A DNA stretch of 64,000 nt from Candidatus Latescibacterota bacterium (GCA_965204745.1 OZ242010.1:5283461-5347460), one strand, 5' to 3'. Shown: positions 4,265 to 56,529, counted from the stretch's first letter. The notes: a model not told the origin generated them from the letters alone. Translations and numbers: made by a program.

Positions 4265-5632
4265 TCAAATAAACCCAATCGCCCGCCAGTAGCGCAGGGT
4301 TAGGGGAAGCAGTACCGCGAGCGTGAGCGCGGAAATCAGGGACATGACGAGGACAAATTGTCCCATTCGGGCGTAGCGAAATCCGTACGCAATAATAAAG
4401 GGCGCGCTTTGATAGGGGATGAAAACCACGCCCGTGCCGATAGCCAGGCTGAGCGCGACGGGCAGGGGCGATAGGCCGAGTTGCGGGCCGAGGTCGAGCA
4501 AAACCGGAGCGAGCACCCCGCCGACCGCAGCGGTATCCATCAAAAAATCAAAGGGCACAGCCAAGCAGGCCATGAGCGCGAGTTGGGCAGTCGGGGTGTC
4601 GAGGGTTTGGAGATGGGGGATGAACGCGGACGCGAGCGCGCGGTTGAGGCCAGACTGTTCGAGTGCATGACCTATCGCAAAGATCGAGGAAATGAAGATG
4701 AGCAGGGGAAAATTGACTTTTTTGAGGGTGTCAAAAGGCAGAGGGCCCCAGCCGGGCAAATAGCAGAGGAGCACGAGGCCCAGGCCCACATAGACCGGAT
4801 GGATGCCGTGCATCGCGTCCGTCGTCCACATGACCATCCCGGCGATGAGAATGCCGAGCACCTTTTTCTCGGCTCGGGTGATCCGTGCGGGCACATCCGC
4901 GGGCGGGCGACGCGAGAGATCGGGTTGTCGCGCAGGGCGAAACAGCAACGAGATGAGGCCGTAGAGCAAGGCAACGCGCAACAGCCCGATGATGGGAAAG
5001 AGATAATACGCCCACGCGCTCCAATAGACCGAGAGGTCGCGCGATTCGAGCACGCCGAGGATGACCAAATTGGGCACGCTGGCCGTCAGAATGCCCGTGC
5101 CGCTGTAATACGTGGCGCAAGTCAGGGAGAGGACGAGGCCCGCGCTGACCTTTGAACCGGGCACTTCCCCAAGGGTTTTGAGCAGGGCAACGACTATCGG
5201 CATCATGATGAGGACGCGCACGACCCCAGAGGGAATCAGCAATGCCATAGCCACGCCGAGGATGTGCAGGCCCAAGACGAGTTGCCAATACCTATCCACG
5301 CGGTTGAGCACGAATTGAGCCAGTCGCGCGCCCAGCGGGGTTTCCGTGATGCCCAAGCTCAAGGCCATGCCCGCAAAAACGAGCCACACGGCTTTGCCGG
5401 AAAAACCTTGAAACGCGGTTTCAAAGGGCAGAACATCCAAAAGCGGAAAGAGCGCGAGGACGAAAATGGCGGTGTAGGAGATCGGGACGGGTTCAAACGT
5501 CCAGAAGATAACGGTCAGCGCAGTCAACGCGAGGGCCAACCGTGCGGATGGGATGAGGTCGCCGGGCAAGAGGAGGATGAGCAGGAACAGGACAGGCCCG
5601 AGGATGAGGCCGATGGTTTGGGAGTGAGGCAT
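4265..5632 (-). CDS. Anion permease, ArsB/NhaD superfamily (DASS/citrate-transporter-like)
   Basis: 455-aa highly hydrophobic polytopic protein with internal two-fold repeat organisation typical of this superfamily. A heptamer tandem repeat lies immediately upstream of its ATG. Confidence 0.45.
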   Translation of the reverse strand: MPHSQTIGLILGPVLFLLILLLPGDLIPSARLALALTALTVIFWTFEPVPISYTAIFVLALFPLLDVLPFETAFQGFSGKAVWLVFAGMALSLGITETPLGARLAQFVLNRVDRYWQLVLGLHILGVAMALLIPSGVVRVLIMMPIVVALLKTLGEVPGSKVSAGLVLSLTCATYYSGTGILTASVPNLVILGVLESRDLSVYWSAWAYYLFPIIGLLRVALLYGLISLLFRPARQPDLSRRPPADVPARITRAEKKVLGILIAGMVMWTTDAMHGIHPVYVGLGLVLLCYLPGWGPLPFDTLKKVNFPLLIFISSIFAIGHALEQSGLNRALASAFIPHLQTLDTPTAQLALMACLAVPFDFLMDTAAVGGVLAPVLLDLGPQLGLSPLPVALSLAIGTGVVFIPYQSAPFIIAYGFRYARMGQFVLVMSLISALTLAVLLPLTLRYWRAIGFI

Positions 5633-5773
5633 AGTCAGTTGTCAGTTGTCAGTCCCATCAGTCGTAGGGACGGGTTGAGGTGTAGGCCAAGAAAAAAATC
5701 ATATAAGCCGTATTGGAAGTTCCGAGAAGACATATAGGGCTAAAGACGCGCCACATTCGCCCCTGTTTTTTGC

Positions 5774-5801
5774 TTGACTCTTTTGGCAGAAGTCCTATAT
5801 A
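5774..5801 (+). promoter_or_regulatory. Sigma70-type promoter (-35 TTGACT, 16-nt spacer, -10 TATATA) for the sigma-factor gene
   Basis: TTGACT at 5774-5779 and TATATA at 5796-5801, about 30 nt upstream of the proposed GTG start. Confidence 0.35.
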
Positions 5802-5833
5802 TCGCAAAACCCAATGCCTCTCACTCCCCCTTC

Positions 5834-6682
5834 AATGAGGTGATTGCCTTGCCTACGACAATCGTTTCCAAAGATGCCTTGCATCGCTATCTCGAAGACG
5901 TGGCCGCGTCTCAACCGCTCTCTGCACGAGAGGAAGTGCGGCTCTCTGCGCGCATTCGCAAGGGCGACCGCGAAGCGCGTGCAAAACTCATCGAAGCCAA
6001 TCTGCGCTTTGTCATCACTGTGGCGTACGAATATCAAAATCAAGGCGTGCCGATTGTCGATCTCATCAGCGCGGGCAATGTCGGGCTGATCACCGCGGCA
6101 GAGCGTTTTGACGGCAGCCGAGGGTTTAAGTTTATCTCTTACGCTGTCTGGTGGATTCGCCAGTCCATTTTGCAAACCTTGGCAGAACATTCCCGCGTGG
6201 TGCGCCTGCCGCTCAACCGCGTGGATTTGCTCAGGCGCATCGCGCGTTGCGCGACCGGGCAGACGTCGATGCGATCTCTGGAAGAGATCGCCGAAGAATT
6301 GGGCATTCCAGTCGAGCAGGTGACGGAGACCCTCACCAGTGGGCAGCGCGTTTTGTCGTTGGATGCGTCTTTTGGCGGCGAGGATGAAAACAGCCTCCTC
6401 GACCTGATGGCCGATGACTCGCAAGAGTCGCCCGATGCGCTGATCATGCGAAATACCCTCAAAAAGGAAATCACCCGCGCATTGAGCACGCTTGAGGAAC
6501 GCGAGCGCGAGGTTATCTGCCTCTATTTTGGGTTGGAATCCGGCGTGGAAATGACGCTCGAAGAAATCGGCAGGCGATACCGCCTCACGCGCGAACGGGT
6601 GCGGCAGATCAAGGAAAAAGCACTCCGCAAATTGCGCCATCCCACCAGAGGCAGGAAGCTGATGCCTTATACGGAAAAGTGA
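5834..6682 (+). CDS. RNA polymerase sigma factor, sigma-70 family (compact RpoD/RpoS-like, regions 1.2-4)
   Basis: Motifs DALHRYLEDV (region 1.2), LIEANLRFVITVAYEY (2.1-2.2), DLISAGNVGLITAAERFD / FISYAVWWIRQSI (2.3-2.4), RVVRLPLNRV (3), and LTLEEIGRRYRLTRERVRQIKEKALRKLR (region 4.2 HTH). Start GTG 5834 is inferred (GAGG 4 nt upstream). The listed ORF start at 5774 lies inside the promoter. Confidence 0.8.
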   Translation, partial: NEVIALPTTIVSKDALHRYLEDVAASQPLSAREEVRLSARIRKGDREARAKLIEANLRFVITVAYEYQNQGVPIVDLISAGNVGLITAAERFDGSRGFKFISYAVWWIRQSILQTLAEHSRVVRLPLNRVDLLRRIARCATGQTSMRSLEEIAEELGIPVEQVTETLTSGQRVLSLDASFGGEDENSLLDLMADDSQESPDALIMRNTLKKEITRALSTLEEREREVICLYFGLESGVEMTLEEIGRRYRLTRERVRQIKEKALRKLRHPTRGRKLMPYTEK

Positions 6683-6930
6683 AAGGCACGGTGTACCTGC
6701 GATAGCCGTTCAAAGGCAAGAGGCAAGACGGAAGAGGCAAGAGGCAAGACGGGAGAAGGCCACCGCGCTGTTCCTCTCAAGTTGTCAGTTGTCAGTTGTC
6801 AGTCCGCCCCGCCCACCCCCTGTTGTAGGGGCGATGCCCCCGTGCTCGTCCAAAGATACAAGGGGGAATGAGGTCTCCCCTCCCCGAAATGGGAGGGGCA
6901 TAACATTGTGCATTCCAACAACGACGGGCA

Positions 6931-8301
6931 TCATGAATTTGATGCCCGTTTCAATTTGTCCACCCAGGCGCGGAATCGCTCGCCGCGTTCTTCAAAATTC
7001 CGAAATTGGTCGTAACTCGCAGACGCAGGCGATAGCAAGACCACATCCCCGGGTTGTGCCAAGCGGGTCGCGCATGCCATTGCCGCGGCCAAATTTTCGA
7101 CCCGATGGATGGCGGTCACACCCTTTGTCGCGTCTGCGATGGCGTCACCGGTTTCGCCCATCACAATCAGGTGCGCCACTTGTTCTGCTATCGCGGGTCC
7201 CAACTCGTCAAACGCGATGCCCTTATCGTATCCCCCGGCGATGAGCACGATGGGCTTGTCAAATGCCTCGAGTGCTGTTTGCGTGCGGTCCGGGGTTGTG
7301 GCGATTGAATCGTTCACATAGAGAACGCCGTCGATCTCGGCCACCTGTTCCAATCTGTGGGGCACGCCTTCAAACATGTGCAGTGTTTCGGCGATGTCCG
7401 TCTCGGCTACGCCGCATAATAGCGCCGCGCCCGTGGCTGCGAGTGCGTTGGCGAGGTTGTGCTGACCGCGCAAGGACAACTCATTTGCAGAACAGATTGT
7501 TCGCGCCGAGCCCCGGAGCGCGTGTTGGATTTTGCCATCGCGCACAAAGACCTGCCCATCGCCTTCAATGGCAAAGACCACGCGTTGCCCATTGCCCGGC
7601 CAGCGAGACACTTCGGCGTCTTCCCCATTGACGACGGCCCAATCGCCGCGGCTTTGGTGCGCGGTGATCTGCTGTTTGGCCTTGCGATACGCTTTTAATG
7701 ACCCGTGAACGTCGAGGTGATTGGGCGCGAAATTGGTGAGCACGGCAATGTGCGGGCTCCACGGCAACTCGCCCAGTCGGTCGAGTTGAAAGCTCGACAA
7801 CTCCAGCACAACCGGGATGGTGGCATCGCCATGCAGGATGTCCAGCGCGTCCAACAATGACCCGCCGATGTTGCCGCCGATTAGGGCGCGCCCATCCTCG
7901 CGCTTGAGCATGTCGCCCAAGAGCGACGTGGTGGTGGTCTTGCCACTGCTGCCCGTGATGCCGATCACCGGCGCGGGACAGCGTTCGACAAACAGACAGA
8001 TTTCAGACGTGATGGGCACACCTGCGGATTCCGCGACCTGCAAAAACCGCGATGACCGGGGCACTGCGGGATTGGCGACGATCAAATCCGCGTTCCGAAA
8101 ATCCGCCTCCTCGTGCCCGCCCAACACAAATGCCACGGGCAACCCATCCAGCGTGCGCACGGATGCGCCCAGTTCCCTCTCCGACCGCAAATCCGTCACT
8201 GTGACCACGGCGCCTTCGCGCACCAAAAACCGCACGGCCCCCACACCCCCGCCAAACACGCCCAACCCCATCACCAAAACGCGCTGGCCCTTTAAGTTCA
8301 T
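6931..8301 (-). CDS. murD: UDP-N-acetylmuramoylalanine--D-glutamate ligase
   Basis: N-terminus MNLKGQRVLVMGLGVFGGG (Rossmann fold). Mur ligase P-loop GITGSSGKTTTTSL. Conserved central and C-terminal Mur domains. Start at 8301 preferred over 8331. Confidence 0.85.
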   Translation of the reverse strand: MNLKGQRVLVMGLGVFGGGVGAVRFLVREGAVVTVTDLRSERELGASVRTLDGLPVAFVLGGHEEADFRNADLIVANPAVPRSSRFLQVAESAGVPITSEICLFVERCPAPVIGITGSSGKTTTTSLLGDMLKREDGRALIGGNIGGSLLDALDILHGDATIPVVLELSSFQLDRLGELPWSPHIAVLTNFAPNHLDVHGSLKAYRKAKQQITAHQSRGDWAVVNGEDAEVSRWPGNGQRVVFAIEGDGQVFVRDGKIQHALRGSARTICSANELSLRGQHNLANALAATGAALLCGVAETDIAETLHMFEGVPHRLEQVAEIDGVLYVNDSIATTPDRTQTALEAFDKPIVLIAGGYDKGIAFDELGPAIAEQVAHLIVMGETGDAIADATKGVTAIHRVENLAAAMACATRLAQPGDVVLLSPASASYDQFRNFEERGERFRAWVDKLKRASNS

Positions 8302-10613: not shown

Positions 10614-13600
10614 TGGAAGTGGGAGTCGGGATAGAGGCTTCGGATGTAGGGTTCAATGGCTTGAGCGGTCGTGCGCGTAGCATTTTGCTCAATGACGTTC
10701 CCTCTGAGGAGGGCCTCGTTCCGGAAGAAGAGGACGTATCGAATGATCAGGATTATATCCGAGAACAGCCTCACATCGCCATCGCCATCCACATCGAGAA
10801 TGTTCTGATTGACCAACGTGTCGAGGTAGGGTTCAATTTCTTGAGCGGTCGTGCGCGTGGCAGTTGGCTCGATGACGTTCCCTCTGAGGAGGGCCTCTTC
10901 CCGGAAGAAGAGGACATATCGAATGACCAGGATTATATCCGAGAACAATCTCACCCGGCCATCGCCATCCACATCCAAGTTGGCACTCGAGGTTTCGTCA
11001 TCGATAATCGTCCCTGTGCCTTGCGCCGTGCTTATGGTCGCATTGGTCGCACTGCTCAGCGTCACGATCACGGTCTCGTTCTGCTCATCATCCGAGTCGT
11101 CGGTCACAGAAACAGGGATGGTCTGGATGGTATCGCCTACCGTGAAGGTCAGGGTCCCCGCGGTAAGCGCGGTGTAATCCGTCCCCGAAGTCGCGGTGCC
11201 CGTGCCCGCGTCTGCATACCCCACTGTCACTTGTGCCGTGTGCGCCGGGCGTAGGTACACCCGAAAGGTTAGGGTCGCGCCGGTCGCGCCTTCAATCACG
11301 CTTGGCGAACCGATACTCAGCGCAGGCATGCCATCGTCATCGATAATCGTCCCTGTGCCTTGCGCCGTGCTTATGGTCGCATTGGTCGCACTGCTCAGCG
11401 TCACGATCACGGTCTCGTTCGGCTCATCATCCCCGTCGTCGCTCACAGAAACAGCGATAGTCTGGCTGGTCGTGCCCGCCGCGAAGGTCAGGGTTCCTGC
11501 GGTAAGTGTGGAGTAATCCGTCCCCGAAGTCGCGGTGCCCGTGCCCGCGTCTGCATACGCCACCGTCACCTCCTTGCCGCTCACCGCATTCAATCTAACG
11601 GTGAACGTCAGGGCAGTGCCCTCAACCGCACTCGGCGAACTGATCGAGAGCCTCGGTTGCGGGTCATCATCGGTGATCGTTATTGCAGTCGGGAGGACCA
11701 CACTGCCCTGGGCGTTGGCTGATACAACGGACACGGTCACGTCGCGATTAAGTTCGTCTCGGGTGTTGTCCACCGCTGTGATGACCACCGTATCCGACGC
11801 GTTCGCGGTTTGCCCTGCCGCGATGGTGATCGTCGAATCCATCCCCACCGTGTAAGCACCGGTCACAGGGCGCACCGTGATCGTCGTCGCCGTGCTCCAC
11901 GACCGTGTCAGCGTCGCGGTCACGGTACTCATCCCGCCGCTTTCCGAGATCGACGAGGGCGTCAGGGTCAACGTCACTACCGCGGGTTGGAGTTGAAATT
12001 GCACGGTGGTGTCCATGCCGGCATACTTCAAGACCGGATACTGATCCGCCGCGCCAAAGGTCCACGGATCGTCTTTGCCCACTGCGTCGCCCGTGTTGGT
12101 ATCGCTGTCCACATTTAGGTTCCAGTTGTAGTAGGTGTCGCTGTTGGTGGCACCGTAAGTGCTCGGGCTCTGGAGATCGCGGGTGGTCTTGCCCCCGGCA
12201 ATGCCGCTCCGGTCACTGTCCCAGTAGCTATTGGTCACTGTGCCAGATGTGCTACCCACCAACCCGCCTTTCGTGCCGTCACCAGTGACCTGACCTGTCG
12301 CATAACTGGCCGTCACTTCACCGCTACTCTCGAGGCGCCCCACCAACCCGCCTTTCGTGCCGCTCCCAGTAACCGTGACCGCGCCCGTCGCATAGGACGC
12401 GATAATCGTCCCGCCGTTCTGCCACCCCACCAGACCACCGACCCAGAAATTGGCCCCACTCCCTAAGGCCGTCACAGCCGCAACGGAATAGCTAGCACTG
12501 ATGCGGCGGTTGGCACCGGTATGAGAATGCCCCACCAGACCGCCCAAGCCGTAACTGCCAGACCCCCGAACGCGACCGGTGACATAACAACCCGTGATGG
12601 CACCCCCGCGCTGATTGCCGGTGAGTCCTCCCACGGCGAGGTTGCCTCTGACATCCACATTGCGGAGCCCAAGACCGGAAACAGTGCCCGTGATATCCCG
12701 GAACAGCCCAACATCATTCTGACCGCCACGGTTGATATACAGGTTGGAGATCGTCTTGTTATTGCCCTTGAGCGTACCGGTGTAAGTCCCGAGGGGTTGC
12801 CAACCCGCGCTGCCATTCCAGTAGGTGGCGTCTGCTGAGGTGATTTCGTCGTCGCCATTCTCGTCAAAGTTGAGGTTGTTGAGCAGTTCGTAGCCGGTGC
12901 AGGTCCCAGAAGGGCAACCCATCCGGACATTGCTGGTGGTGTCGCGGTTGGGAAAGGCGGCGTTGTAGTTCATGGTATCACTATCGGCGACGATCCCATC
13001 GCCGTTGAGATCCCAGCGGATGGCATGCAGTTGTGCCAGCGTCTTAATGTCGATGAGGCCATCGCCATCCCTGTCGTAATTGATCCCCGGGGGCGTGCCC
13101 ATGACCTCGTCCGAGGGCGTGCTATCGGTCCCACCTGCCAGGGTGGCAAGGACGCGCACTGTGTAGGGCGTCCCTATCGTCAGGTTCTCTATCGTGTAGG
13201 TCGTGGTGCTGCCTCCAGAGACCGTCTCCTGGCGAGAAGAGGTGTTGTAGCTTTGTCCACCGGACTTCCACTGCACCTTGTAGCCCGTCGCGCCGGTTGC
13301 CTCGGTCCAAGCCACAATGAGTTGGCCCGGCCCAGGCGTCACGCGCACATTGGTGGGTTTATTTGTCGCCAAGGTCACCATGACTGCGTCCGAAGGAGCG
13401 CTGTCGGCTACATTGATATTGGTACTCGTGGCGATGACGCGAATCGTGTAAGTCGTCCCTGCGGTCAGCCCAGAAATTTTGTGGATCGTGGTGCTCCCGC
13501 CAGCGATTGTGGCTTGCCCGTGCGTGGCCAACGCCAGATCGGCGGTGGGATAAGTCGCTACCCCGGATTTCCACTGCACCTTATACCCAGTTGCATCGTT

Positions 13601-48825: not shown

Positions 48826-49104
48826 ATGAACTGGACCGTCACAATAGGTACGAGGGCACAAAAACAAATCAGGCGTTTACCCGAACAGATCAAAAAGAAT
48901 CTTGTTGCTCTGATCAGAGAGATTGAAGTGGCAGGTCCAGTTCGTGGGAACTGGCCTAATTATAGCTCTCTCGGAAGAAATCGGCACCATTGTCACATCA
49001 AAAAAGGAAGACCGACTTACGTCTCTGTTTGGGAAGTAAAGGACAAAAACATCAAACTGGTAGAGGTGACTTATGCAGGTACCCATGAAAAAGCACCGTA
49101 CTGA
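48826..49104 (+). CDS. RelE/ParE-superfamily toxin (HigB-like; toxin-first gene order)
   Basis: 92-aa basic protein (RelE/ParE-like by size and charge). Precedes and overlaps an HTH antitoxin gene. Very low GC (~43%). Confidence 0.5.
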   Translation: MNWTVTIGTRAQKQIRRLPEQIKKNLVALIREIEVAGPVRGNWPNYSSLGRNRHHCHIKKGRPTYVSVWEVKDKNIKLVEVTYAGTHEKAPY

Positions 49105-49429
49105 AGCAGACACCATTGAACTGCGCTTTCTCGGTCCGCAAGAAAAACGCAAGCAAGCCATTCGCGTACTCGATTCCATGGGCTTTGTGGATATATCCGA
49201 TTCAGTTCCCTGGCAGGCGTGTTTTTCGTATGCTGACGAACAGTTGCCCAGCATTTCTCTGGCGGGAGCAAGGGAAAAGGAAGGGTTGACACAACGAGAA
49301 CTGTCTCGGTTGACGGGCATTCCGCAACGACGTATTTCAGAAATGGAAAATGGCAAACGGCCCATTCAAAAAGAAACAGCGAAAAAACTGGGGAAAACAC
49401 TCAACATCAGCTATAAAGTCTTTCTGTGA
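49085..49429 (+). CDS. HTH XRE-family antitoxin (HigA-like)
   Basis: C-terminal helix-turn-helix LTQRELSRLTGIPQRRISEMENGKRPI. Overlaps the toxin 3' end by ~20 nt. Confidence 0.6.
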   Translation: MKKHRTEADTIELRFLGPQEKRKQAIRVLDSMGFVDISDSVPWQACFSYADEQLPSISLAGAREKEGLTQRELSRLTGIPQRRISEMENGKRPIQKETAKKLGKTLNISYKVFL

Positions 49430-49492
49430 ACCGACAGATCGCCTAAAAATATCCACTGAAATTTTTTGACGCTCGTCTTTCCGAGGGAAGCG

Positions 49493-50290
49493 ATGTCTTT
49501 GACGCAAGCGCAAATTGACCGCTTTCGCAAGTGGGGGTACGCGGTCGTGCCCGATATGTTCACGCGGCGGGAAGTGCGTGCGATGCGCGGGGAACTCGAC
49601 CGCTTCAAGCGCGAGGGGCTTCTCCGCAATGTGGCGACGGATGGCGATGGGCAAACCCATTCGCAAACGCAGATCAACTTGCAGATTTGCCCCATCACCC
49701 CCAAGAGTGCGTTTTACCGCGCCCTGCACTTTCACCCCAAGGTCATCGCGCTCGTCGAACAACTCATCGGCTCGCCCTTTGTGTTCTACCTCGATCAGAT
49801 CTTTCTCAAACCCGGCAAACAGGGCATTGGCACGGACTGGCATCAGGACAACGCCTATTTCAAAGTCAGGGACCCGGGCAAAGGCGTTGGGATGTGGGTT
49901 GCCCTGCACGATGCGACTATCGCCAACGGCACCTTGCACATCATTCCCGGCAGCCATCGAGAAAACCATGCCCACGACCGCGATCCCAACAGCGACCACC
50001 ACATTCACTGCGCCGTGCCCGAAGAGAGGGCCATCCCCATTGAATTGCCGGCCGGAGGCGCGGTCTTTTTTAATTTTGGCATCGCGCACAGCACCCGCGC
50101 AAATACCACAGCCCGAGAACGCGCGGGCCTTGCCCTGCATTTTTTGAACGCGGACTATATTCCCGAAAACATCAGAGGCACGCGGCGATATACCCACCTC
50201 ACAGGCCCTCTCGCCACGGGTGGGAAGAGGGAATACGGCCGCTGCATTGCCAACACTTGGCGCGATGAAGTGGATCGCGTGCTTGGGTGA
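49493..50290 (+). CDS. Phytanoyl-CoA dioxygenase (PhyH) family protein
   Basis: TDWHQDNAYF motif. N-terminal LTQAQIDRFRKWGYAVV is typical for the family. HxD...H iron ligands. Confidence 0.7.
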   Translation: MSLTQAQIDRFRKWGYAVVPDMFTRREVRAMRGELDRFKREGLLRNVATDGDGQTHSQTQINLQICPITPKSAFYRALHFHPKVIALVEQLIGSPFVFYLDQIFLKPGKQGIGTDWHQDNAYFKVRDPGKGVGMWVALHDATIANGTLHIIPGSHRENHAHDRDPNSDHHIHCAVPEERAIPIELPAGGAVFFNFGIAHSTRANTTARERAGLALHFLNADYIPENIRGTRRYTHLTGPLATGGKREYGRCIANTWRDEVDRVLG

Positions 50291-50594
50291 ATCGTGCGTG
50301 CCCATCCTCTCTACCCCGCCGCTTTGGGCGATGCCCCCGTGTCCGCCCGCCGAAAAAAAATTGAAATTAGCTGTTGACATGTTTCCCCAAATCAGATAGT
50401 TTTTGAGCAGAACATAGAACCTCGTGCTTTGATGCGTTTTGCATCTCTTCCGATCCCGATGGTCTCAGTCGGGAATCCTACGGGTTCGACAATCTGTAAC
50501 GGGATGCGCGGATTGTTTGGTTTTATTCGACAAGCCGATAATCCCGTTCGATTGCCCCACTTGGGATAGGGTGTCGCTTAACAAAGGAGTGGGA

Positions 50595-52394
50595 ATGAGC
50601 GAAGCCAAAGATGGCCGTTCTGGCCTTGTTTTTCCGCTACGCGATTCTTCTTCCGAAGAAATTTTCCTCATTGTGCAGTGCCTTCAGGACGCTGGTTTTT
50701 CCCGCCATGACCGAGCATGGCTGGTGCGCGTTTTTGAACGCCCAGATTGTTTTGGCGATCCCAACGGGGACGCTGTGTTGAAAGAGGCGTTTGCGGCTTC
50801 TTTTGAGCATGTTCTGCCCGGCGTCGTGGAAGAATTGGGCGAACCGGAGCAAACCGAGGAAGACAGGCAGAACCGCTTGGCACTTCTGTTCGGGTTCCTG
50901 CTTGGCTTTGGGCCGATCTACAGCGAGGTGGTTCTACCCGATGACAGGCTCGGAAAATCGGGCGACGCTTGGCATGTTCCCGCGTGGGTTGGCGCGTTCC
51001 AAAAGCACGCGAGGTTTTGTGCGAAAAGTCTGGGTTGGCAAAAACTCAATGCGTTGCGGGACGCGGGTGTTTTTCGATTCTTTGACCTGATTCCATTTCT
51101 CTTTCCCAAAGGCGTGCCATTGGCCCAGGTCGTGGAGTTGGGCTTGTTAAATCCGATTCTGCGACGCGGATGGTCGAGCGATGATTTTCGGGATCCCAGA
51201 GAACTCGAGTTTTGGTTGATCTGGCGATTTCGCACGGATGCCGAATGCCGCGACATGATTGACCTGCACACGTTATTGCGAGCGTTTTCAGAGTTTCCCG
51301 ATGGCGTTTTGGGCGATAAAATACTCGGGCTGTTGAACGCCATCGAATACGCTATGAACCTGGGATCGGCATTGGGCGATAAACGCCTGAATGCGTTGGG
51401 CGACGGATGGCGGGTTGTTGCACGGGAGTTGACGCCGTTTTGGGAACTGTTGAATGGGAAATCGCCAGAGTCGCAGCCGCAACCCTCATCCCTGCTCAAA
51501 GCATGGTGGCGGTTGGCTGTGGCGATTCACTACAAAAGTATGGGTGGGTTGGAATCCGATCTCGCCGATGAACTCAGGAACCAGCTCGTCGAAAGTGCCG
51601 CACGGCACATTGGGATTTTGCGAAAGATAGTGCGAGAAACGCCTGAAAATTTTGCAGGTAGGGATTCGACGGGAATGCCCGTTTCCGATTTTTACGACAA
51701 GGCGTTTGAAGTGCTGTGCATTTTTGCACCCCCGTGGAAATGTCTGAAGTCCTTATTGCTGGCTTTTTCCGAGATGACCGTGCCGGCCATTGCATCTGAT
51801 CTGCGGCCATGGGCAGAAGCGAACAGAGAAGCCCCGCCGCATCCGCATCATCACATCCCGCTGTGGATCGGCATCGCCATGTATCCGCAGAATCTTCGGA
51901 ATGAATTGAAGCGAGACCCGCACTTGCGGCGGTTGCGCGAGGAGTTCGCCAAATTTTGCCTCGACCGGCTCAAAACAAAAAAAATTGACACCGAGGCGAA
52001 AACCGAGGTGTCTGATTACGCAGATGAAGAATTTGTCGAACCGCGTCGCCCGTGGCGACGGTGCTATGTGCAAGCCGTAACCGCATTGCGCGTCAATCCC
52101 GGCGGCCGGGCGCACAGAACCCTGTTCTGGCTTTCTAGGAATGATCCGGATAAAACGGTCCGAGAATTTGCAAAACGAGCGCACGGACAAATTCGGCATC
52201 TCAACCGCAACAAATCGAATTTAGATCGCGGTGCATCACCCCGCCGCCCCCTATTTGAAGCCTTTTGGTGGCTTCGCCAAGCGCATCTGTTGACGCTCGA
52301 CAAACCGATTGATGAGGCGGGCGCGCTGCGAACGCGCAGAACGGAGTTGCACCGCACCCGCGAGAAAGCTGATCGCCTCAATTGGGAAGCATAG
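50595..52394 (+). CDS. Hypothetical protein (~600 aa, predominantly alpha-helical), no recognisable domain; immediately upstream of the pVip cassette
   Basis: AAGGAG SD 6 nt upstream of ATG 50595. Long uninterrupted ORF with coding-like third-position GC. ~52% GC, lower than core genes. Confidence 0.5.
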   Translation: MSEAKDGRSGLVFPLRDSSSEEIFLIVQCLQDAGFSRHDRAWLVRVFERPDCFGDPNGDAVLKEAFAASFEHVLPGVVEELGEPEQTEEDRQNRLALLFGFLLGFGPIYSEVVLPDDRLGKSGDAWHVPAWVGAFQKHARFCAKSLGWQKLNALRDAGVFRFFDLIPFLFPKGVPLAQVVELGLLNPILRRGWSSDDFRDPRELEFWLIWRFRTDAECRDMIDLHTLLRAFSEFPDGVLGDKILGLLNAIEYAMNLGSALGDKRLNALGDGWRVVARELTPFWELLNGKSPESQPQPSSLLKAWWRLAVAIHYKSMGGLESDLADELRNQLVESAARHIGILRKIVRETPENFAGRDSTGMPVSDFYDKAFEVLCIFAPPWKCLKSLLLAFSEMTVPAIASDLRPWAEANREAPPHPHHHIPLWIGIAMYPQNLRNELKRDPHLRRLREEFAKFCLDRLKTKKIDTEAKTEVSDYADEEFVEPRRPWRRCYVQAVTALRVNPGGRAHRTLFWLSRNDPDKTVREFAKRAHGQIRHLNRNKSNLDRGASPRRPLFEAFWWLRQAHLLTLDKPIDEAGALRTRRTELHRTREKADRLNWEA

Positions 52395-52442
52395 TGTCCC
52401 CCTGCGGCGATAGATACCAACGAGAAAGGAGGTGATGAGAAT

Positions 52443-52607
52443 ATGGCGAAAATCAGTGGCAATCGCTCGGGCGGTACCCGCAGTGGCGGTAAAGGTGGTC
52501 GGCAAAGCGGCGGTCAAAGCAAAAGCCGTGGAAGTGGCGGCTGGCCGAGCAAGACCGGCAACCGCTCCGGCACTGGCCGAACCAATGCCCCGCCGAAAAG
52601 CAAATGA
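52443..52607 (+). CDS. Small Gly/Ser/Lys/Arg-rich ORF (54 aa; KGG-like), uncertain
   Basis: MAKISGNRSGGTRSGGKGGRQSGGQSKSRGSGG... lies between the hypothetical gene and pVip. The alternative overlapping frame (52432, MMRIW...) has atypical codon bias. Confidence 0.3.
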   Translation: MAKISGNRSGGTRSGGKGGRQSGGQSKSRGSGGWPSKTGNRSGTGRTNAPPKSK

Positions 52608-52783
52608 ACTGATCGGAAGGTGCTGATAACGCCAGTTCATTCACGCGATCAACACCTTCCGCCAACAACTGGTGCGTCCGCACTTCGTGGCTCAATAGCC
52701 ACCCGTTTGATCTCTTCGAGATCGTGCTATGGCGCATCCTTTCAAGACAATTTTTGAATCGCCTTGTCAAAGGAGAAAGGATC

Positions 52784-53683
52784 ATGAAAATGACCATCAA
52801 TTCCCCCGATCTGTCGCAGAAAATTCCATCGGTCAACTACCATCTCTGGGAGCCGTGCAACATGCGTTGCAAGTTCTGTTTTGCCACATTTCAAGATGTC
52901 AAGCGAGACATGGAACTGCCCAAAGGTCACTTGCCGGAGAATGAGTGTCTCTCGGTCGTGGATCGACTTGCCGAAGCCGGTTTTGAAAAGATCAATTTTG
53001 CCGGCGGAGAACCCACGCTTTGCCCTTGGTTGCCAAACTTGATCAAGCGGGCAAAGAACCATGAGATGGTCACCTCCATCGTTACAAATGGATCGAGAAT
53101 CACCGATCCATGGCTGGACGGGCTGAACGGAAGTTTGGACTGGATCGCGTTGAGCATTGATACCGTTGATCCGGAAAAACTGAAACGCTCGGGTCGCGCA
53201 CTTGGTGGTGGAAAGAAACCCATGACCGAGGAAGAATATCTGGGCATCATCCGCACCGTAAAGCGACGAGGGGTTCGGCTGAAAATCAACACGGTCATCA
53301 CTTCTGAAACGTGGCAAGAGGATTTTACCGACTTCATCAGATCGGCCAAACCGGAGCGATGGAAGTTGCTCCAAGCCCTCCGCGTCGAGGGGCAAAATGA
53401 CGCGCATATCGCCGATTTCGAGATCGCGCCAGAGCAATTCGAGGCGTACGTCCAACGCAATCGCATCGTCGAAAATGACGGTATTATCGTCGTGCCAGAG
53501 AGCAATGAAATGATGACGGAAAGTTATGTCATGATCGACCCAGCGGGCCGCTTTTTTGATAACGCACAAGGTGCCCATACTTATAGCCGCCCTATTTTGG
53601 AGGTTGGCATTGAAGATGCTTTGCAGGATGTATCGGTTGACCGTGAACGTTTTCTCAAAAGAGGAGGGCAGTATGAGTGGTGA
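52784..53683 (+). CDS. Prokaryotic viperin (pVip) radical SAM antiviral nucleotide-modifying enzyme
   Basis: CNMRCKFC (CxxxCxxC). Near-collinear similarity to human viperin RSAD2 recalled from memory: NYH..R.CN..C.FCF, KINFAGGEP, SIVTNGS, KINTVI, RWKLLQAL.VEGQN, VPESNEMMTESYVMID, ILEVGIEDA, and C-terminal FLKRGGQYEW (vs FLKRGGKYIW). Confidence 0.85.
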   Translation: MKMTINSPDLSQKIPSVNYHLWEPCNMRCKFCFATFQDVKRDMELPKGHLPENECLSVVDRLAEAGFEKINFAGGEPTLCPWLPNLIKRAKNHEMVTSIVTNGSRITDPWLDGLNGSLDWIALSIDTVDPEKLKRSGRALGGGKKPMTEEEYLGIIRTVKRRGVRLKINTVITSETWQEDFTDFIRSAKPERWKLLQALRVEGQNDAHIADFEIAPEQFEAYVQRNRIVENDGIIVVPESNEMMTESYVMIDPAGRFFDNAQGAHTYSRPILEVGIEDALQDVSVDRERFLKRGGQYEW

Positions 53684-53883
53684 TACACTCCCGCGCTGAA
53701 GCGAAGCGGGGTGAGGCCGTTAGAAATGAGGAGCGAAACCTCGCTGAGAAAGTTGCCCGACGCGAGGCAGTGCTTCAGGCGTACCGGATGTTTGACCCGA
53801 TTGAGATCGATACCAGTCACCTCGATCCCGATGCCGTACTCGTAGCGGTGCTCGAGGTTCTGCACAAATCCGTATTGTGTTAA
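53677..53883 (+). pseudogene. Cytidylate-kinase-like C-terminal remnant (68 codons) overlapping pVip stop
   Basis: RNEERNLAEKVARRE...DPIEIDTSHLDPDAVLVAVLEVL resembles the Cmk C-terminus (R-D-x-R-D...[20 protein letters not shown]). No P-loop N-terminal part is present. Confidence 0.35.
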
Positions 53884-53894
53884 GCATCTGATAC

Positions 53895-53936
53895 AAAAAA
53901 GTGCCCCGGCGATGTTTTGCCGGGGCACTTTTTTTG
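53895..53936. terminator. Bidirectional Rho-independent terminator (pVip cassette / uvrA)
   Basis: aaaaaa-gtgccccggc-gatgtttt-gccggggcac-ttttttt. Perfect 10-bp GC stem flanked by A6 and T7. Confidence 0.65.
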
Positions 53937-53967
53937 TCACCGTCGAGGGTTTAATCCGCGCCATCCC

Positions 53968-56529
53968 TTAATCCGCGACAATCCGCGATCCAGACTGGAG
54001 AAACCGGCCCGTGTGGGAAGTGGGAACGCGGGTGATCGCTTCGGGGGTGCCCGTGGCGACGATGTGCCCGCCGTTTTCGCCGGCGTCGGGGCCGAGGTCG
54101 ATGATCCAGTCGGCGCGTTTGATCACGTCGAGATTGTGCTCGATGACGAGCGCGGTATTGCCGCGATCCACGAGGCGGTCGAGCACTTCGATGAGCACGC
54201 GGATGTCGTCAAAGTGCAAGCCCGTGGTGGGTTCGTCGAGCAAGTACAGGGTCTTGCCCGTGGCACTGCGCGCCAGTTCAGTGGCGAGTTTCACGCGCTG
54301 TGCCTCGCCGCCGGACAATGAGGTGGCCGCCTGCCCCAAGCGCAAATAGCCCAGGCCCACGGCTGCGAGGGAGTTGAGGTGTCGCTGTGCGGCGGGAATG
54401 TTGCGGAAAAAGGACTGCGCCTGCGCGACGGTCATGTTCAACGCGTCGGCGATGGAACTGCCCTTGTACCGGACCTCGAGGGTTTCCCGGTTGTAGCGCG
54501 TGCCCGCGCAGGTGTCGCAAGTGACGAACACATCGGGCAAGAAGTGCATCTCGATGCGGCGCACCCCATCGCCCTGACAGGCTTCGCACCGCCCGCCCTT
54601 CACATTGAAACTGAACCGGCCCGCGCCATAACCGCGCACTCGGGATTCGGGCAGTTGCGCGTACAGGTCGCGGATGGCGGTGAACGCGCCGGTGTACGTG
54701 GCGGCATTGGATCGCGGGGTGCGCCCAATGGGCGATTGGTCGATGCGGATGACCTTGTCGAGTTGCCCCATGCCCTCTATTGCGCGATGGGGCAGGGGGT
54801 CTGCATTCGCGCGGTGAAAATGCCGGGCGAGCGCGGGATACAGGGTTTGGTCGATGAGCGAACTCTTGCCGGAGCCGGACACGCCGGTGACGCACACAAA
54901 AACGCCCAGTGGAATATCCACCTCCACGTCTTGCAAATTGTGCCCACGGGCGCCCCGAATCGAGAGATGGCCGTGCGGTTGGCGCGCATCCGGAGGCGGG
55001 GGAATGGTCTTGCGCCCCGAGAGATAATCGCCGGTGAGGGATCGTTCATCGGCCATCACGGTTCGCGGCGCACCCTTTGCGATCACCCGGCCCCCGTGTT
55101 CGCCCGCGCCCGGCCCGAGGTCGATGAGATAATCGGCCATTTCCATGGCTTCGCGGTCGTGCTCGACCACGATGACCGAATTGCCCAAATCGCGCAGATT
55201 GCAAAACGCTTTGATGAGTTTGCGATTGTCGCGGGGGTGCAGGCCAATGCTCGGTTCGTCGAGCACGTACAGGACGCCAACGAGGCGCGTGCCGATTTGC
55301 GTTGCCAAGCGGATGCGCTGAAATTCGCCACCGGAAAGCGTGGTTGCCCTGCGGTTGAGCGCGAGATACCCCACGCCCACATCTGCGAGAAAGCCGAGGC
55401 GGCTTTCGATTTCGCGGATCAGGGGCGCGGCGATCTCGGCGGCATTGTCTCGCAAGTCGAGCGTTTGAAAAAACCGCCTGATCCCATCGATGGGCAGGCG
55501 GGCGATATCGGCGATGGTGCTATCGGCAAGGGTGATGGCTAGCGCCTCTGCGCGCAAGCGCGTGCCATGGCACTCGGGGCAGGTTTGATCGCGCACGCGC
55601 GAATCGGAATCGCCCGGGGCCGGATCGCTGCTAGATGGAGGCTTGCTGAATAACTCCCCGTCAGCGCCTGCGTTGGAAACCGTCCCAAGGCCATCGCAGG
55701 TCGGGCAGGCGCCATAAGGGCTGTTGAAGGAAAACAAGCGCGGTTCGATGGCGTGGATTTCAAAATGGCCCTCTGTGCAGGCAAAGCGCGTGGAGAACGT
55801 CCAGTCGCCTTTGCCGACAATGTCGAGTGTGGCCGTGCCGTCGGCCAAATCGAGCGCGGTTTCGAGCGAATCCGCGAGGCGCGAAGCCAGGTTGCCGCGC
55901 ACCACCAAGCGATCCACGACCGCGTCAATGCTGTGCGCGGCGCGTTTGTCCAAGGTGATCGCACGGTCGAGCGGCAGAATCGCGCCATCCACGCGCACGC
56001 GCAGATAGCCCGCTTTTCGCAACTGCACAAAAACGCTTTGCTGCCCGCCTTTTGCATTGCGGACCAGCGGCGCGAGCACCTGAAGGCGTTGGCCTTCGGG
56101 CAAGGCGAGCACGCGATCCACGACTGCCGCGACCGTCTCTCGGACGATGACCTGCCCACAGACCGGACAATGCGGCGTGCCAACTCTGGCAAACAAGAGG
56201 CGCAAGTGGTCATAGACTTCCGTCAACGTGCCCACGGTCGAACGCGGTGTGCGGGGCATGCCGCGCTGTTGAATTGCCACCGCAGGCGAAAGACCTTCGA
56301 TGCTGTCGGCATCGGGCTTGTCCATCAAATCGAGAAATTGCCGCGCGTACGCAGACAGGGATTCGACATAACGGCGTTGCCCTTCGGCGTAGATCGTATC
56401 AAAAGCCAACGACGATTTGCCCGACCCGGAAGGCCCGGTGATCACGACCAGACAGTTGCGCGGAATGTCCAAGTCGATATTTTTGAGGTTGTGCTGCCGC
56501 GCACCGCGAATGGTGATCGTATCGCTCAT
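53968..56529 (-). CDS. uvrA: Excinuclease ABC subunit A (UvrA family), 853 aa
   Basis: N-terminus [66 protein letters not shown]. Two ABC modules with Zn-finger Cys clusters ([25 protein letters not shown]). Confidence 0.85.

Follow-up and report, generated by a model that had tools for sequence, protein, structure and literature searches.

A bacterial viperin in an exchangeable gene slot behind a conserved helical protein and structured RNA leaders: a candidate modular antiviral cassette

A 64,000-nucleotide stretch of DNA from Candidatus Latescibacterota bacterium (GCA_965204745.1 OZ242010.1:5283461-5347460; hereafter the window, with positions counted from its first letter) carries a gene for a prokaryotic viperin (pVip), a radical S-adenosylmethionine (radical SAM) enzyme. 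The gene is preceded by those for a 599-residue protein predicted to be all-α, X600, and a 54-residue basic micro-protein, G54, and is followed by the remnant of a nucleotide kinase gene. We found that X600 is the constant gene of this arrangement in many genomes, that the gene behind it is exchanged between close relatives, and that two covarying RNA structures, motif A and motif B, lie ahead of X600 and of the exchangeable gene. Our preferred interpretation, which we hold with moderate confidence, is that the locus exemplifies a modular cassette that has not been described before and whose role is most likely antiviral. Viperin is one of the few immune enzymes common to bacteria and humans. 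To questions about the control of bacterial viperins, and about whether these enzymes act solo or with partners, the locus adds a conserved candidate partner in at least five phyla.

The radical SAM gene encodes a prokaryotic viperin

Comparison with known families identifies the radical SAM gene as a bona fide prokaryotic viperin, as a sequence-only reading of this DNA had proposed. The protein scores 308.9 bits on the NCBIfam equivalog model NF038283 (viperin_w_prok, ‘viperin family antiviral radical SAM protein’; cutoff 180) and matches the PADLOC pVip models at 2e-81 to 5e-114. Its radical SAM core matches PF04055 at 1.9e-20, with CNMRCKFC as the CxxxCxxC motif. Residues 15-299 are collinear with residues 30-309 of mammalian viperin (5vsl; 8.7e-43), and the alignment, on whose full length the earlier assignment had been staked, runs through to the C-terminal KRGGxYxW (KRGGQYEW in the window, KRGGKYVW in 5vsl). 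The gene is under purifying selection, with a dN/dS of 0.17-0.28 against its two closest relatives. Homology of the Shine–Dalgarno (SD) spacing suggests that translation may instead begin at a second ATG (52790).

X600 is paired with interchangeable enzymes across phyla

The protein of about 600 residues that had been noted upstream, without a recognizable family, is real, conserved and uncharacterized. X600 has no match in Pfam, NCBIfam, PADLOC v2 (E up to 0.1), PHROGs or PDB sequences. Its homologues number more than 427 in 90% clusters; at 50% identity, 1.84 billion representatives yielded 475 clusters of them. A second search, seeded with distant X600 sequences, gave at least 14 proteins. 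Lengths outside 530-670 aa are rare, and a search for domain fusions found no Pfam domain in them, longer members included. An AF2 model of X600 (53 sequences; pLDDT 85, pTM 0.82) is entirely α-helical, and Foldseek searches with the model against the PDB and the viral BFVD returned nothing significant. The part conserved across phyla is the C-terminal third, which has invariant Arg, Trp and His residues (...VNPGGRAHRTLFWLS.NDPD... and ...SPRR.LFEAFWWLRQAHL...) and is strongly basic (isoelectric point (pI) 10.4, net charge +12); the N terminus is acidic. The dN/dS of X600 (0.22-0.25) indicates purifying selection. As listed, its open reading frame (ORF) begins at an upstream TTG, at 50439. Among 2.9 million viral contigs, X600 matched one (L106, IMGVR_UViG_3300021969_000084), in which an X600-pVip pair at 5221-8142 is 92-94% identical to the Phycisphaerales locus L053. 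This contig is probably a chromosomal island or a miscalled provirus, and since the sole viral match is a near-copy of a chromosomal locus, we rejected the idea that X600 is a phage gene.

With an X600 profile we collected 73 genome loci, one genome per species. Phylum names are those of the database records, gene maps of the relatives come from a greedy ORF caller, not from annotation, and many relatives are long-read metagenome-assembled genomes (MAGs), in which frameshifts may be assembly errors. Candidatus Latescibacterota and Poribacteria loci, mostly from sponge-associated MAGs, carry X600 at 50-86% identity. Myxococcota, Planctomycetota, Phycisphaerales, Verrucomicrobia and a Deltaproteobacteria-labelled MAG carry it at 30-41% over the C-terminal 200-400 residues, and Spirochaetes match weakly.

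In 61 of the 73 loci, spread over at least five phyla, the gene or genes directly downstream of X600 on the same strand encode pVip, a metallo-β-lactamase (MBL)/β-CASP nuclease or a B12-binding radical SAM enzyme (B12-rSAM). The commonest partner is a ~530-aa MBL/β-CASP/RMMBL nuclease (29 loci), which is present in relatives and not in the window. It matches aCPSF1 at 1e-95 (TIGR03675, score 321.3, cutoff 580) and type VII Cas14 at 4e-92 (NF045584, score 309.5, cutoff 800); as both scores fall under their cutoffs, we rejected membership of either family and regard the protein as a related β-CASP RNase-type protein. pVip follows X600 in 26 loci by ORF clustering and in about 27 by tblastn, nine of them with a recognizable kinase ORF. 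The third partner, a ~465-aa B12-rSAM enzyme (C4; 13 loci), matches the PADLOC candidate PDC-M51A at 1e-90 to 1e-105. Combinations also occur (X600-pVip-kinase-MBL, X600-MBL-pVip-kinase and X600-C4-MBL). Among the 12 loci with none of the three families, several are contig ends or have split ORFs and five are distant Spirochaete loci. Two other genes were seen in the slot after X600: a family-2 glycosyltransferase with motif B ahead of its gene (L038, 12331-13404) and, in Phycisphaerales, a GRDP-like protein (L056, 5931-6476).

A further 28 metagenome loci repeat the downstream-partner pattern, with pVip directly behind X600 in eight. Conserved co-occurrence of X600 and pVip across genomes, which had been proposed as a check on the partnership, is thus found in both collections. 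The contrary outcome named alongside it, that X600 homologues never neighbour pVip, is contradicted by pairs that include Myxococcota, Planctomycetota, Phycisphaerales and the Deltaproteobacteria-labelled MAG. Six pVips from distant phyla pass NF038283 at 269-294 bits and begin 77-136 nt after X600. Flanking genes are wholly different between phyla; some encode type I restriction-modification (RM) systems, AbiEi or mad2.

These maps bear on the possibility that the neighbourhood is coincidental, with X600 an unrelated conserved gene that marks an integration hotspot for defence genes. The upstream flank of the window is indeed unlike that of its closest relatives, L001 and L002, and the content of the slot varies. 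Yet in at least five phyla, with X600 at 30-40% identity and the flanks entirely different, the genes keep their adjacency, strand and order; the intergenic gaps in distant phyla are as short as ~27-136 nt; and a dedicated leader RNA, described below, is common to all slot genes and was found nowhere else in 1.5 Mb. The cross-phylum adjacency largely refutes coincidence, which we consider very improbable.

Slot genes are exchanged at the start codon

Some genomes that differ in the slot gene have flanks that are 91-93% identical at the nucleotide level. In the group with uvrA downstream, L003 carries MBL, L004 carries pVip and the kinase, and L009 and L010 carry C4. In a second group, defined by a gene for a 1286-aa protein upstream and a Rieske gene downstream, L012, L016, L018 and L019 carry MBL and L013 and L014 carry pVip. 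Alignment of L004 with L003 showed homology through X600, G54 and motif B up to position 12237 in both, which is the start codon of pVip or MBL, and homology picks up again after the slot gene. L004 and L009 behave in the same way. Exchange exactly at the start codon argues that X600 is the constant element and that pVip is one of at least three interchangeable modules. The sequence-only reading had suggested a new gene combination or a pVip co-opting a new partner; the pairing is indeed undescribed and conserved, but the roles are the reverse of those imagined, pVip being the part that is exchanged. These natural swaps, which put viperin, the β-CASP ribonuclease and PDC-M51A in the same slot, also argue that the nuclease and PDC-M51A are effectors of the same pathway. 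A literature search turned up links of pVip with kinases and with HicA/RelE, and no X600-like partner, RNAs of the kind described next, or exchange among pVip, β-CASP and B12-rSAM genes.

Structured RNA leaders precede X600 and the slot gene

The two RNA leaders, which the sequence-only reading had missed, are arguably the most unusual feature of the cassette. Motif B was found by aligning the spacers between G54 and the next gene, as an element of ~70 nt that lies ahead of pVip, MBL and C4 alike. Its helices in the window are P1 (GGUGCGUC/GGCGCAUC), P1b (GCAC/GUGC), P2 (GUGGCU-CAAU-AGCCAC) and P3 (GAUCUC-UUC-GAGAUC). The structure was specified by hand, RNAalifold on the same alignment (A6) having given P2 and P3 but mis-paired P1. 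Across this alignment, the 23 pairs are formed in 91.4% of cells, compared with 31-45% in slid controls; 14 of them show compensatory change, a level reached by none of 500 shuffles. The region folds with z = -3.99, and the covariance model (CM) R1 scores 87.8 bits at the window copy, CM E-values being rough. Searches with nhmmer and R1 found about 48 copies, all on the + strand and located either in the interval from X600 to the next gene or ahead of a second module, with no copy elsewhere in the 1.43 Mb searched and none in distant phyla. An exact-pattern scan of JGI metagenomes, a collection that seems to be without this clade, gave 0 matches.

Motif A, in the 5′ untranslated region (UTR) of X600, is supported in the same manner. 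Its 20 pairs are formed in 95.5% of the cells of alignment A9 (24-51% in slid controls), ten of the 20 show compensatory change, again beyond all of 500 shuffles, and the minimum free energy (MFE) structure of the single window sequence gives the same fold. CM R2 scores 89.8 bits in the window and places the motif upstream of X600 in nearly all loci of the clade, with no copy outside the cassette in 1.58 Mb searched and none in other phyla. In L027 and L037 the motif separates X600 from the effector, and in L045 (9627-9715 and 9856-9944) and L048 (8737-8825 and 8966-9054) two copies stand in tandem upstream of X600; a tandem arrangement is known for some riboswitch classes. A terminator-like hairpin with a U-tract follows motif A in Poribacteria loci only. 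An extra motif A with a short X600 5′ fragment was seen in L009 (6078-6166 and 6653-8474) and L010 (13932-14020). It precedes a gene for a 496-aa protein (c52) and a gene for a ~100-aa protein, both without a Pfam match, which may be a further module type; c52 was rejected as an X600 paralogue because BLASTP shows no relation.

Neither motif matches any of the 4227 families of Rfam 15, with permissive filters too. The only overlap with motif B is a minus-strand ncS01 at 17.2 bits (gathering 58, E 0.56), which we attribute to chance. A GAUGC...GCAUC helix and a GAUCCC...GGGAUY hairpin are common to the two motifs and hint at a shared binder or a shared origin. Downstream of motif B, the 6-10 nt directly 3′ of P1 complement the SD sequence in about half of the 48 leaders, mainly Latescibacterota-labelled ones, and this anti-SD/SD pairing covaries in L021 (UCUCCUCU/GGAGGAGA) and L046 (UCUUCUCA/UGAGGAGA). 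In the hairpin that follows the G54 stop (P0), covariation can be seen by eye in alignment A5 (AGGUG/CACCU vs AGGUU/AACCU). Uncatalogued as they are, the two RNAs could represent novel classes of riboswitch or of protein-binding leader through which immune effectors are gated.

G54 is a conserved micro-protein

The 54-aa Gly/Ser/Lys-rich ORF pointed out earlier is likewise real, conserved and uncharacterized. It has its own SD sequence and a dN/dS against L001 (0.26) that indicates purifying selection, and is kept in at least 22 loci as MAKSSGNRSGG...GWPSKTGNPSGGGRxNAPPKGK; on these grounds we rejected the alternative of a non-coding or chance ORF. The protein has a pI of 12 and zero acidic residues, and gave 0 matches in Pfam, NCBIfam, PADLOC v2 (E up to 0.1), PHROGs and PDB sequences. 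The family comprises at least 289 clusters, and a micro-protein family of ~50 aa with so sharply conserved a motif is a further lead. G54 directly precedes pVip, MBL or C4, and sometimes stands ahead of the second module of a locus.

Small proteins from Acidovorax soli, Lautropia and a euryarchaeote contain the core motif twice in tandem, in unrelated contexts. In Acidovorax soli (L102-L105; gene at 3885-4049 of L102), a 54-aa protein consists of two core motifs (PSKTGNPSGGGRxNxPP), and its gene adjoins those for a WG_beta_rep protein, an 896-aa protein of unknown type and a 1956-aa UvrA-like protein; a transposase is close by. The distribution of the peptide motif thus extends far beyond the cassette.

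A small conserved peptide that adjoins radical SAM genes invites comparison with pathways for ribosomally synthesized and post-translationally modified peptides (RiPPs), in which G54 would be the precursor, the radical SAM enzymes would modify it and the MBL-fold hydrolase would process it. C4 is weakly similar to RiPP C-methyltransferases (TIGR03975 at 1.9e-09, and NF050148), the hosts are sponge symbionts, and a repeat peptide matured by a radical SAM enzyme is known as the defence effector of the HXS system (PMC13128918). We nevertheless give this scheme very little credence: G54 equally precedes pVip, which acts on nucleotides and is collinear with viperin throughout, it is absent from other phyla that keep X600-effector pairs, its motif recurs in unrelated contexts such as that of Acidovorax soli, and the locus has no protease, transporter or leader/core organization.

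The kinase gene is decayed in the window

A decayed nucleotide-kinase gene does overlap the pVip stop, as had been read from the sequence, but family matches place it with thymidylate-kinase/CMPK2-like enzymes rather than with cytidylate kinases (Cmk). The 68-codon ORF noticed there (F68, GTG start, 53677-53883) corresponds to residues 141-197 of the intact ~200-aa kinase of relatives (57 of 201 residues by tblastn) and is 63% identical to the C terminus of the L004 kinase. In relatives, the kinase ATG overlaps the pVip stop and the protein begins MTGKFIVIEGLDATGKSTL. The window keeps this ATG, at 53673, and then runs through eight codons into a stop; DNA alignment revealed an internal deletion of ~390 nt, the P-loop region (GxDxxGKST) is among what was deleted, and no intact ~200-aa ORF is left. 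Intact kinases of relatives match PF02223 Thymidylate_kin (1.8e-17), PADLOC VakA (1.5e-13) and PDC-M51B (6.5e-27), and score 67.9 bits on the dTMP-kinase model TIGR00041 (9e-19), under its 83.25-bit cutoff. These matches are to thymidylate-kinase models only, with no Cmk family among them, which rules out the Cmk label for F68.

The kinase is intact in 10 loci of the clade and decayed in at least five. Separate lesions were seen in L001 (13040-13416; a different deletion plus frameshifts), L013 and L014 (~13190-13411) and L032 (14984-15439); the kinase frameshifts in L002 (13024-13653) are possibly long-read assembly errors. Its being intact in 10 loci and independently damaged in several others argues that the kinase is accessory. 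According to Shomar et al., 12% of bacterial viperins have an adjacent CMPK2-type kinase (10.1101/2023.09.13.557418).

In Myxococcota, a DUF4258-like gene for a protein of ~100 aa lies between X600 and pVip (L058, 11219-11521; L054, 6092-6484; L059, L063 and L064), which fits the published link of small RNase toxins with pVips, RelE/HicA-type toxins being known neighbours of these enzymes (PMC10865869). Toxin-like genes at such sites give some substance to another explanation, that X600 is an antitoxin- or immunity-like factor that shields host RNA polymerase or RNA, or holds the effector inactive. X600 is always upstream of, and probably co-transcribed with, enzymes that are potentially self-toxic, and a solenoid fold suits protein binding. 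A single 600-aa protein would, on the other hand, have to neutralize three unrelated enzyme families, and we know of no report that characterized pVips need an immunity partner. We regard this explanation as improbable.

Extent of the cassette

The closest relatives, L001 and L002, are 87-89% identical to the window from 50353/50354 to ~53943 (blastn), and the features within this block are given in Table 1. All four ORFs listed by the sequence-only reading are present at their positions, on the + strand between a PhyH-family gene (49466-50290) and the convergent uvrA (53968-56529), and the strong terminator that had been placed at the end of the block is borne out. The description of a low-GC block holds only weakly: at 53.5%, the GC content of the cassette is below that of the whole window (57.3%) and of uvrA (62.9%), but the difference is modest and G54 reaches 62%. 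A consensus promoter scan raised no flag at the tentative promoter of Table 1; in Poribacteria relatives, a TATAAT lies a few bases 5′ of motif A.

Table 1 Features of the cassette in the window
Feature	Position	Strand	Description
Whole cassette	50353-53943	+	Block homologous to closest relatives L001 and L002
Tentative promoter	50374-50402	+	TTGACA, 17 nt, TAGTTT; read by eye
RNA motif A	50417-50487	+	Three-way junction in the X600 5′ UTR; GAACCU...GAUGC-loop-GCAUC...GAUCCCGA-loop-UCGGGAAUC...GGGUUC
X600	50595-52394	+	599-aa predicted all-α solenoid, constant gene; ATG with good SD
G54	52443-52607	+	54-aa Gly/Ser/Lys/Arg-rich basic micro-protein; motif GWPSKTGN(P/R)SGxGRxNAPPK
P0 hairpin	52614-52661	+	After the G54 stop; CGGAAGGUG...CACCUUCCG; conserved, part of the MFE fold
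RNA motif B	52671-52738	+	Three-way junction leader (P1, P1b, P2, P3) before the exchangeable gene
Likely expression platform	52737-52781	+	Anti-SD UCCUUUC (52737-52743, overlapping the last 2 nt of P1), small hairpin, SD GAAAGGA (52775-52781)
pVip	52784-53683	+	Viperin-family radical SAM enzyme, CNMRCKFC cluster motif; NF038283, PADLOC, 5vsl alignment
Remnant of Tmk/CMPK2-like viperin-associated kinase	53673-53883	+	ATG + 8 codons (53673-53699), then ~57 C-terminal codons in another frame (~53701-53883)
Bidirectional intrinsic terminator	53896-53938	both	AAAAAAGUGCCCCGGC-loop-GCCGGGGCACUUUUUUU, -35.2 kcal/mol, flanked by A-tract and U-tract; common to convergent uvrA

The RelE-like/HTH pair and the PhyH gene upstream were considered as members of the cassette and rejected, because homology to the relatives begins only at 50353. 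The pair (48826-49429) is low in GC (46%) and consists of a 92-aa ORF without a family match that overlaps the gene for a 118-aa HTH_3/HigA-like protein. It looks like a toxin-first toxin-antitoxin module and lies outside the block homologous to relatives. On the minus strand downstream, the UvrA of the window has 853 aa compared with 914-923 aa in relatives; at 55595-55673, 78 nt of low-complexity coding sequence replaces ~285 nt of L002, and an internal UvrA domain appears to be missing.

A model for the cassette

In the Latescibacterota/Poribacteria clade, the operon likely runs in the order promoter, motif A, X600, G54, P0 hairpin, motif B, pVip and terminator. By family membership, pVip would convert nucleoside triphosphates (NTPs) into 3′-deoxy-3′,4′-didehydro-NTPs (ddhNTPs), which would terminate chains in viral RNA synthesis, and the CMPK2-like kinase, now dead, may formerly have fed it substrate. 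Motif A would gate X600, and motif B together with the anti-SD would mask the ribosome-binding site and so gate translation of each exchangeable gene, such that toxic effectors are kept off until a signal opens the leader. X600 is, in our view, most likely a sensor or regulator, or an adaptor, that links effector activity to infection and may do so by binding RNA; a HEAT-repeat domain is the phage-protein sensor of DSR2 (PMC11263360), which is a precedent for the sensor role. G54 may be an RNA-binding or co-regulatory micro-protein. An antiviral role is suggested by the association of pVip and PDC-M51A with defence, by turnover of the slot between near-identical genomes and by the presence of RM or Abi genes near some loci. 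Matches to PDC-M51A (C4), VakA and PDC-M51B (the kinase) and aCPSF1/Cas14 (the nuclease) likewise mark the partners as defence-associated or RNA-directed.

Several observations weigh against this interpretation. Riboswitch-like leaders are typical of metabolic genes and not of known defence systems, and characterized pVips reportedly work alone in heterologous hosts. The anti-SD is present in only about half of the motif B leaders. Motifs A and B and G54 are absent from other phyla and are thus not essential to the relationship between X600 and its effectors. The structural likeness of X600 is to a generic solenoid only, with no recognizable catalytic or sensor fold. Finally, in the Latescibacterota/Poribacteria genomes the cassette occupies constant chromosomal sites with housekeeping neighbours (uvrA, Rieske, DUF1501) and looks vertically inherited, unlike typical mobile defence islands.

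Some of these same features speak for a serious rival, a non-defence module of RNA or nucleotide metabolism in which X600 is a housekeeping RNA-processing scaffold, motifs A and B are metabolite riboswitches, and the cell uses a modified nucleotide made by the viperin-like and B12-rSAM enzymes. The fixed position, housekeeping neighbours and apparent vertical inheritance, the riboswitch-like architecture of the leaders and the purifying selection on X600 all suit such a module. So does the fact that the commonest partner is a β-CASP nuclease, given the eukaryotic parallels of the HEAT proteins symplekin and IntS4, which hold the β-CASP proteins CPSF73 and IntS11. Against it, three mechanistically unrelated enzymes swap in one slot of near-isogenic genomes, pVip passes an antiviral-viperin equivalog model, C4 and the kinase match defence-candidate models, the X600 family is patchy (475 clusters among the 1.84 billion representatives) and the solenoid matches are generic. 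On balance we think a metabolic module unlikely, though it deserves more weight than the other alternatives, and we continue to prefer the antiviral cassette.

A broader proposal is more tentative still than that preference, and we find it possible rather than probable. X600 may define a multi-phylum modular immune family, in which a solenoid sensor or regulator, possibly RNA-binding, presides over effectors that are RNA-directed and can replace one another (a viperin that makes ddhNTPs, a ribonuclease like Cas14/CPSF and a B12-rSAM enzyme), one clade acting through two new structured RNA classes (riboswitch or protein-binding leaders) and a basic micro-protein. If true, the family would be the first example of a defence system under the control of dedicated aptamer-like leaders.

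Comparison with known systems

The cassette resembles the known linkage of pVip with VakA (viperin with CMPK2) in that the window pVip passes the equivalog model and aligns over its full length with RSAD2, and in that relatives carry an overlapping Tmk/CMPK2-like kinase. It differs in that the window kinase is destroyed and in that pVip sits, slot-exchangeable, behind a 600-aa partner, a micro-protein and a structured leader. A second point of contact is the PADLOC candidate PDC-M51 (B12-rSAM plus a Tmk-like kinase), since C4 of the relatives matches PDC-M51A and the pVip-linked kinase matches PDC-M51B; the window, however, has no M51A gene, and C4 comes after X600 and motif B, usually without a kinase. 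To our knowledge, PDC-M51 is a candidate system only, and we know of no mechanism for it.

With the HEAT-repeat sensor of DSR2 and with Avs and NLR-like proteins, the cassette has in common a predicted solenoid combined with interchangeable effectors that turn over between close relatives. Unlike in DSR2 and Avs, the putative sensor and the effector are separate genes, and X600 has no NTPase or other signalling domain. The pairing of X600, a predicted solenoid, with an aCPSF1/Cas14-like β-CASP MBL protein is also reminiscent of symplekin-CPSF73, of IntS4-IntS9/11 and of type VII CRISPR Cas14. As for the leaders, motifs A and B are like riboswitches and protein-binding leaders in being covarying three-way junctions of ~70 nt in 5′ leaders, with an anti-SD after motif B and a hairpin with a U-tract after motif A in many loci, and are unlike catalogued riboswitches in matching no Rfam family and in being found only inside the cassette.

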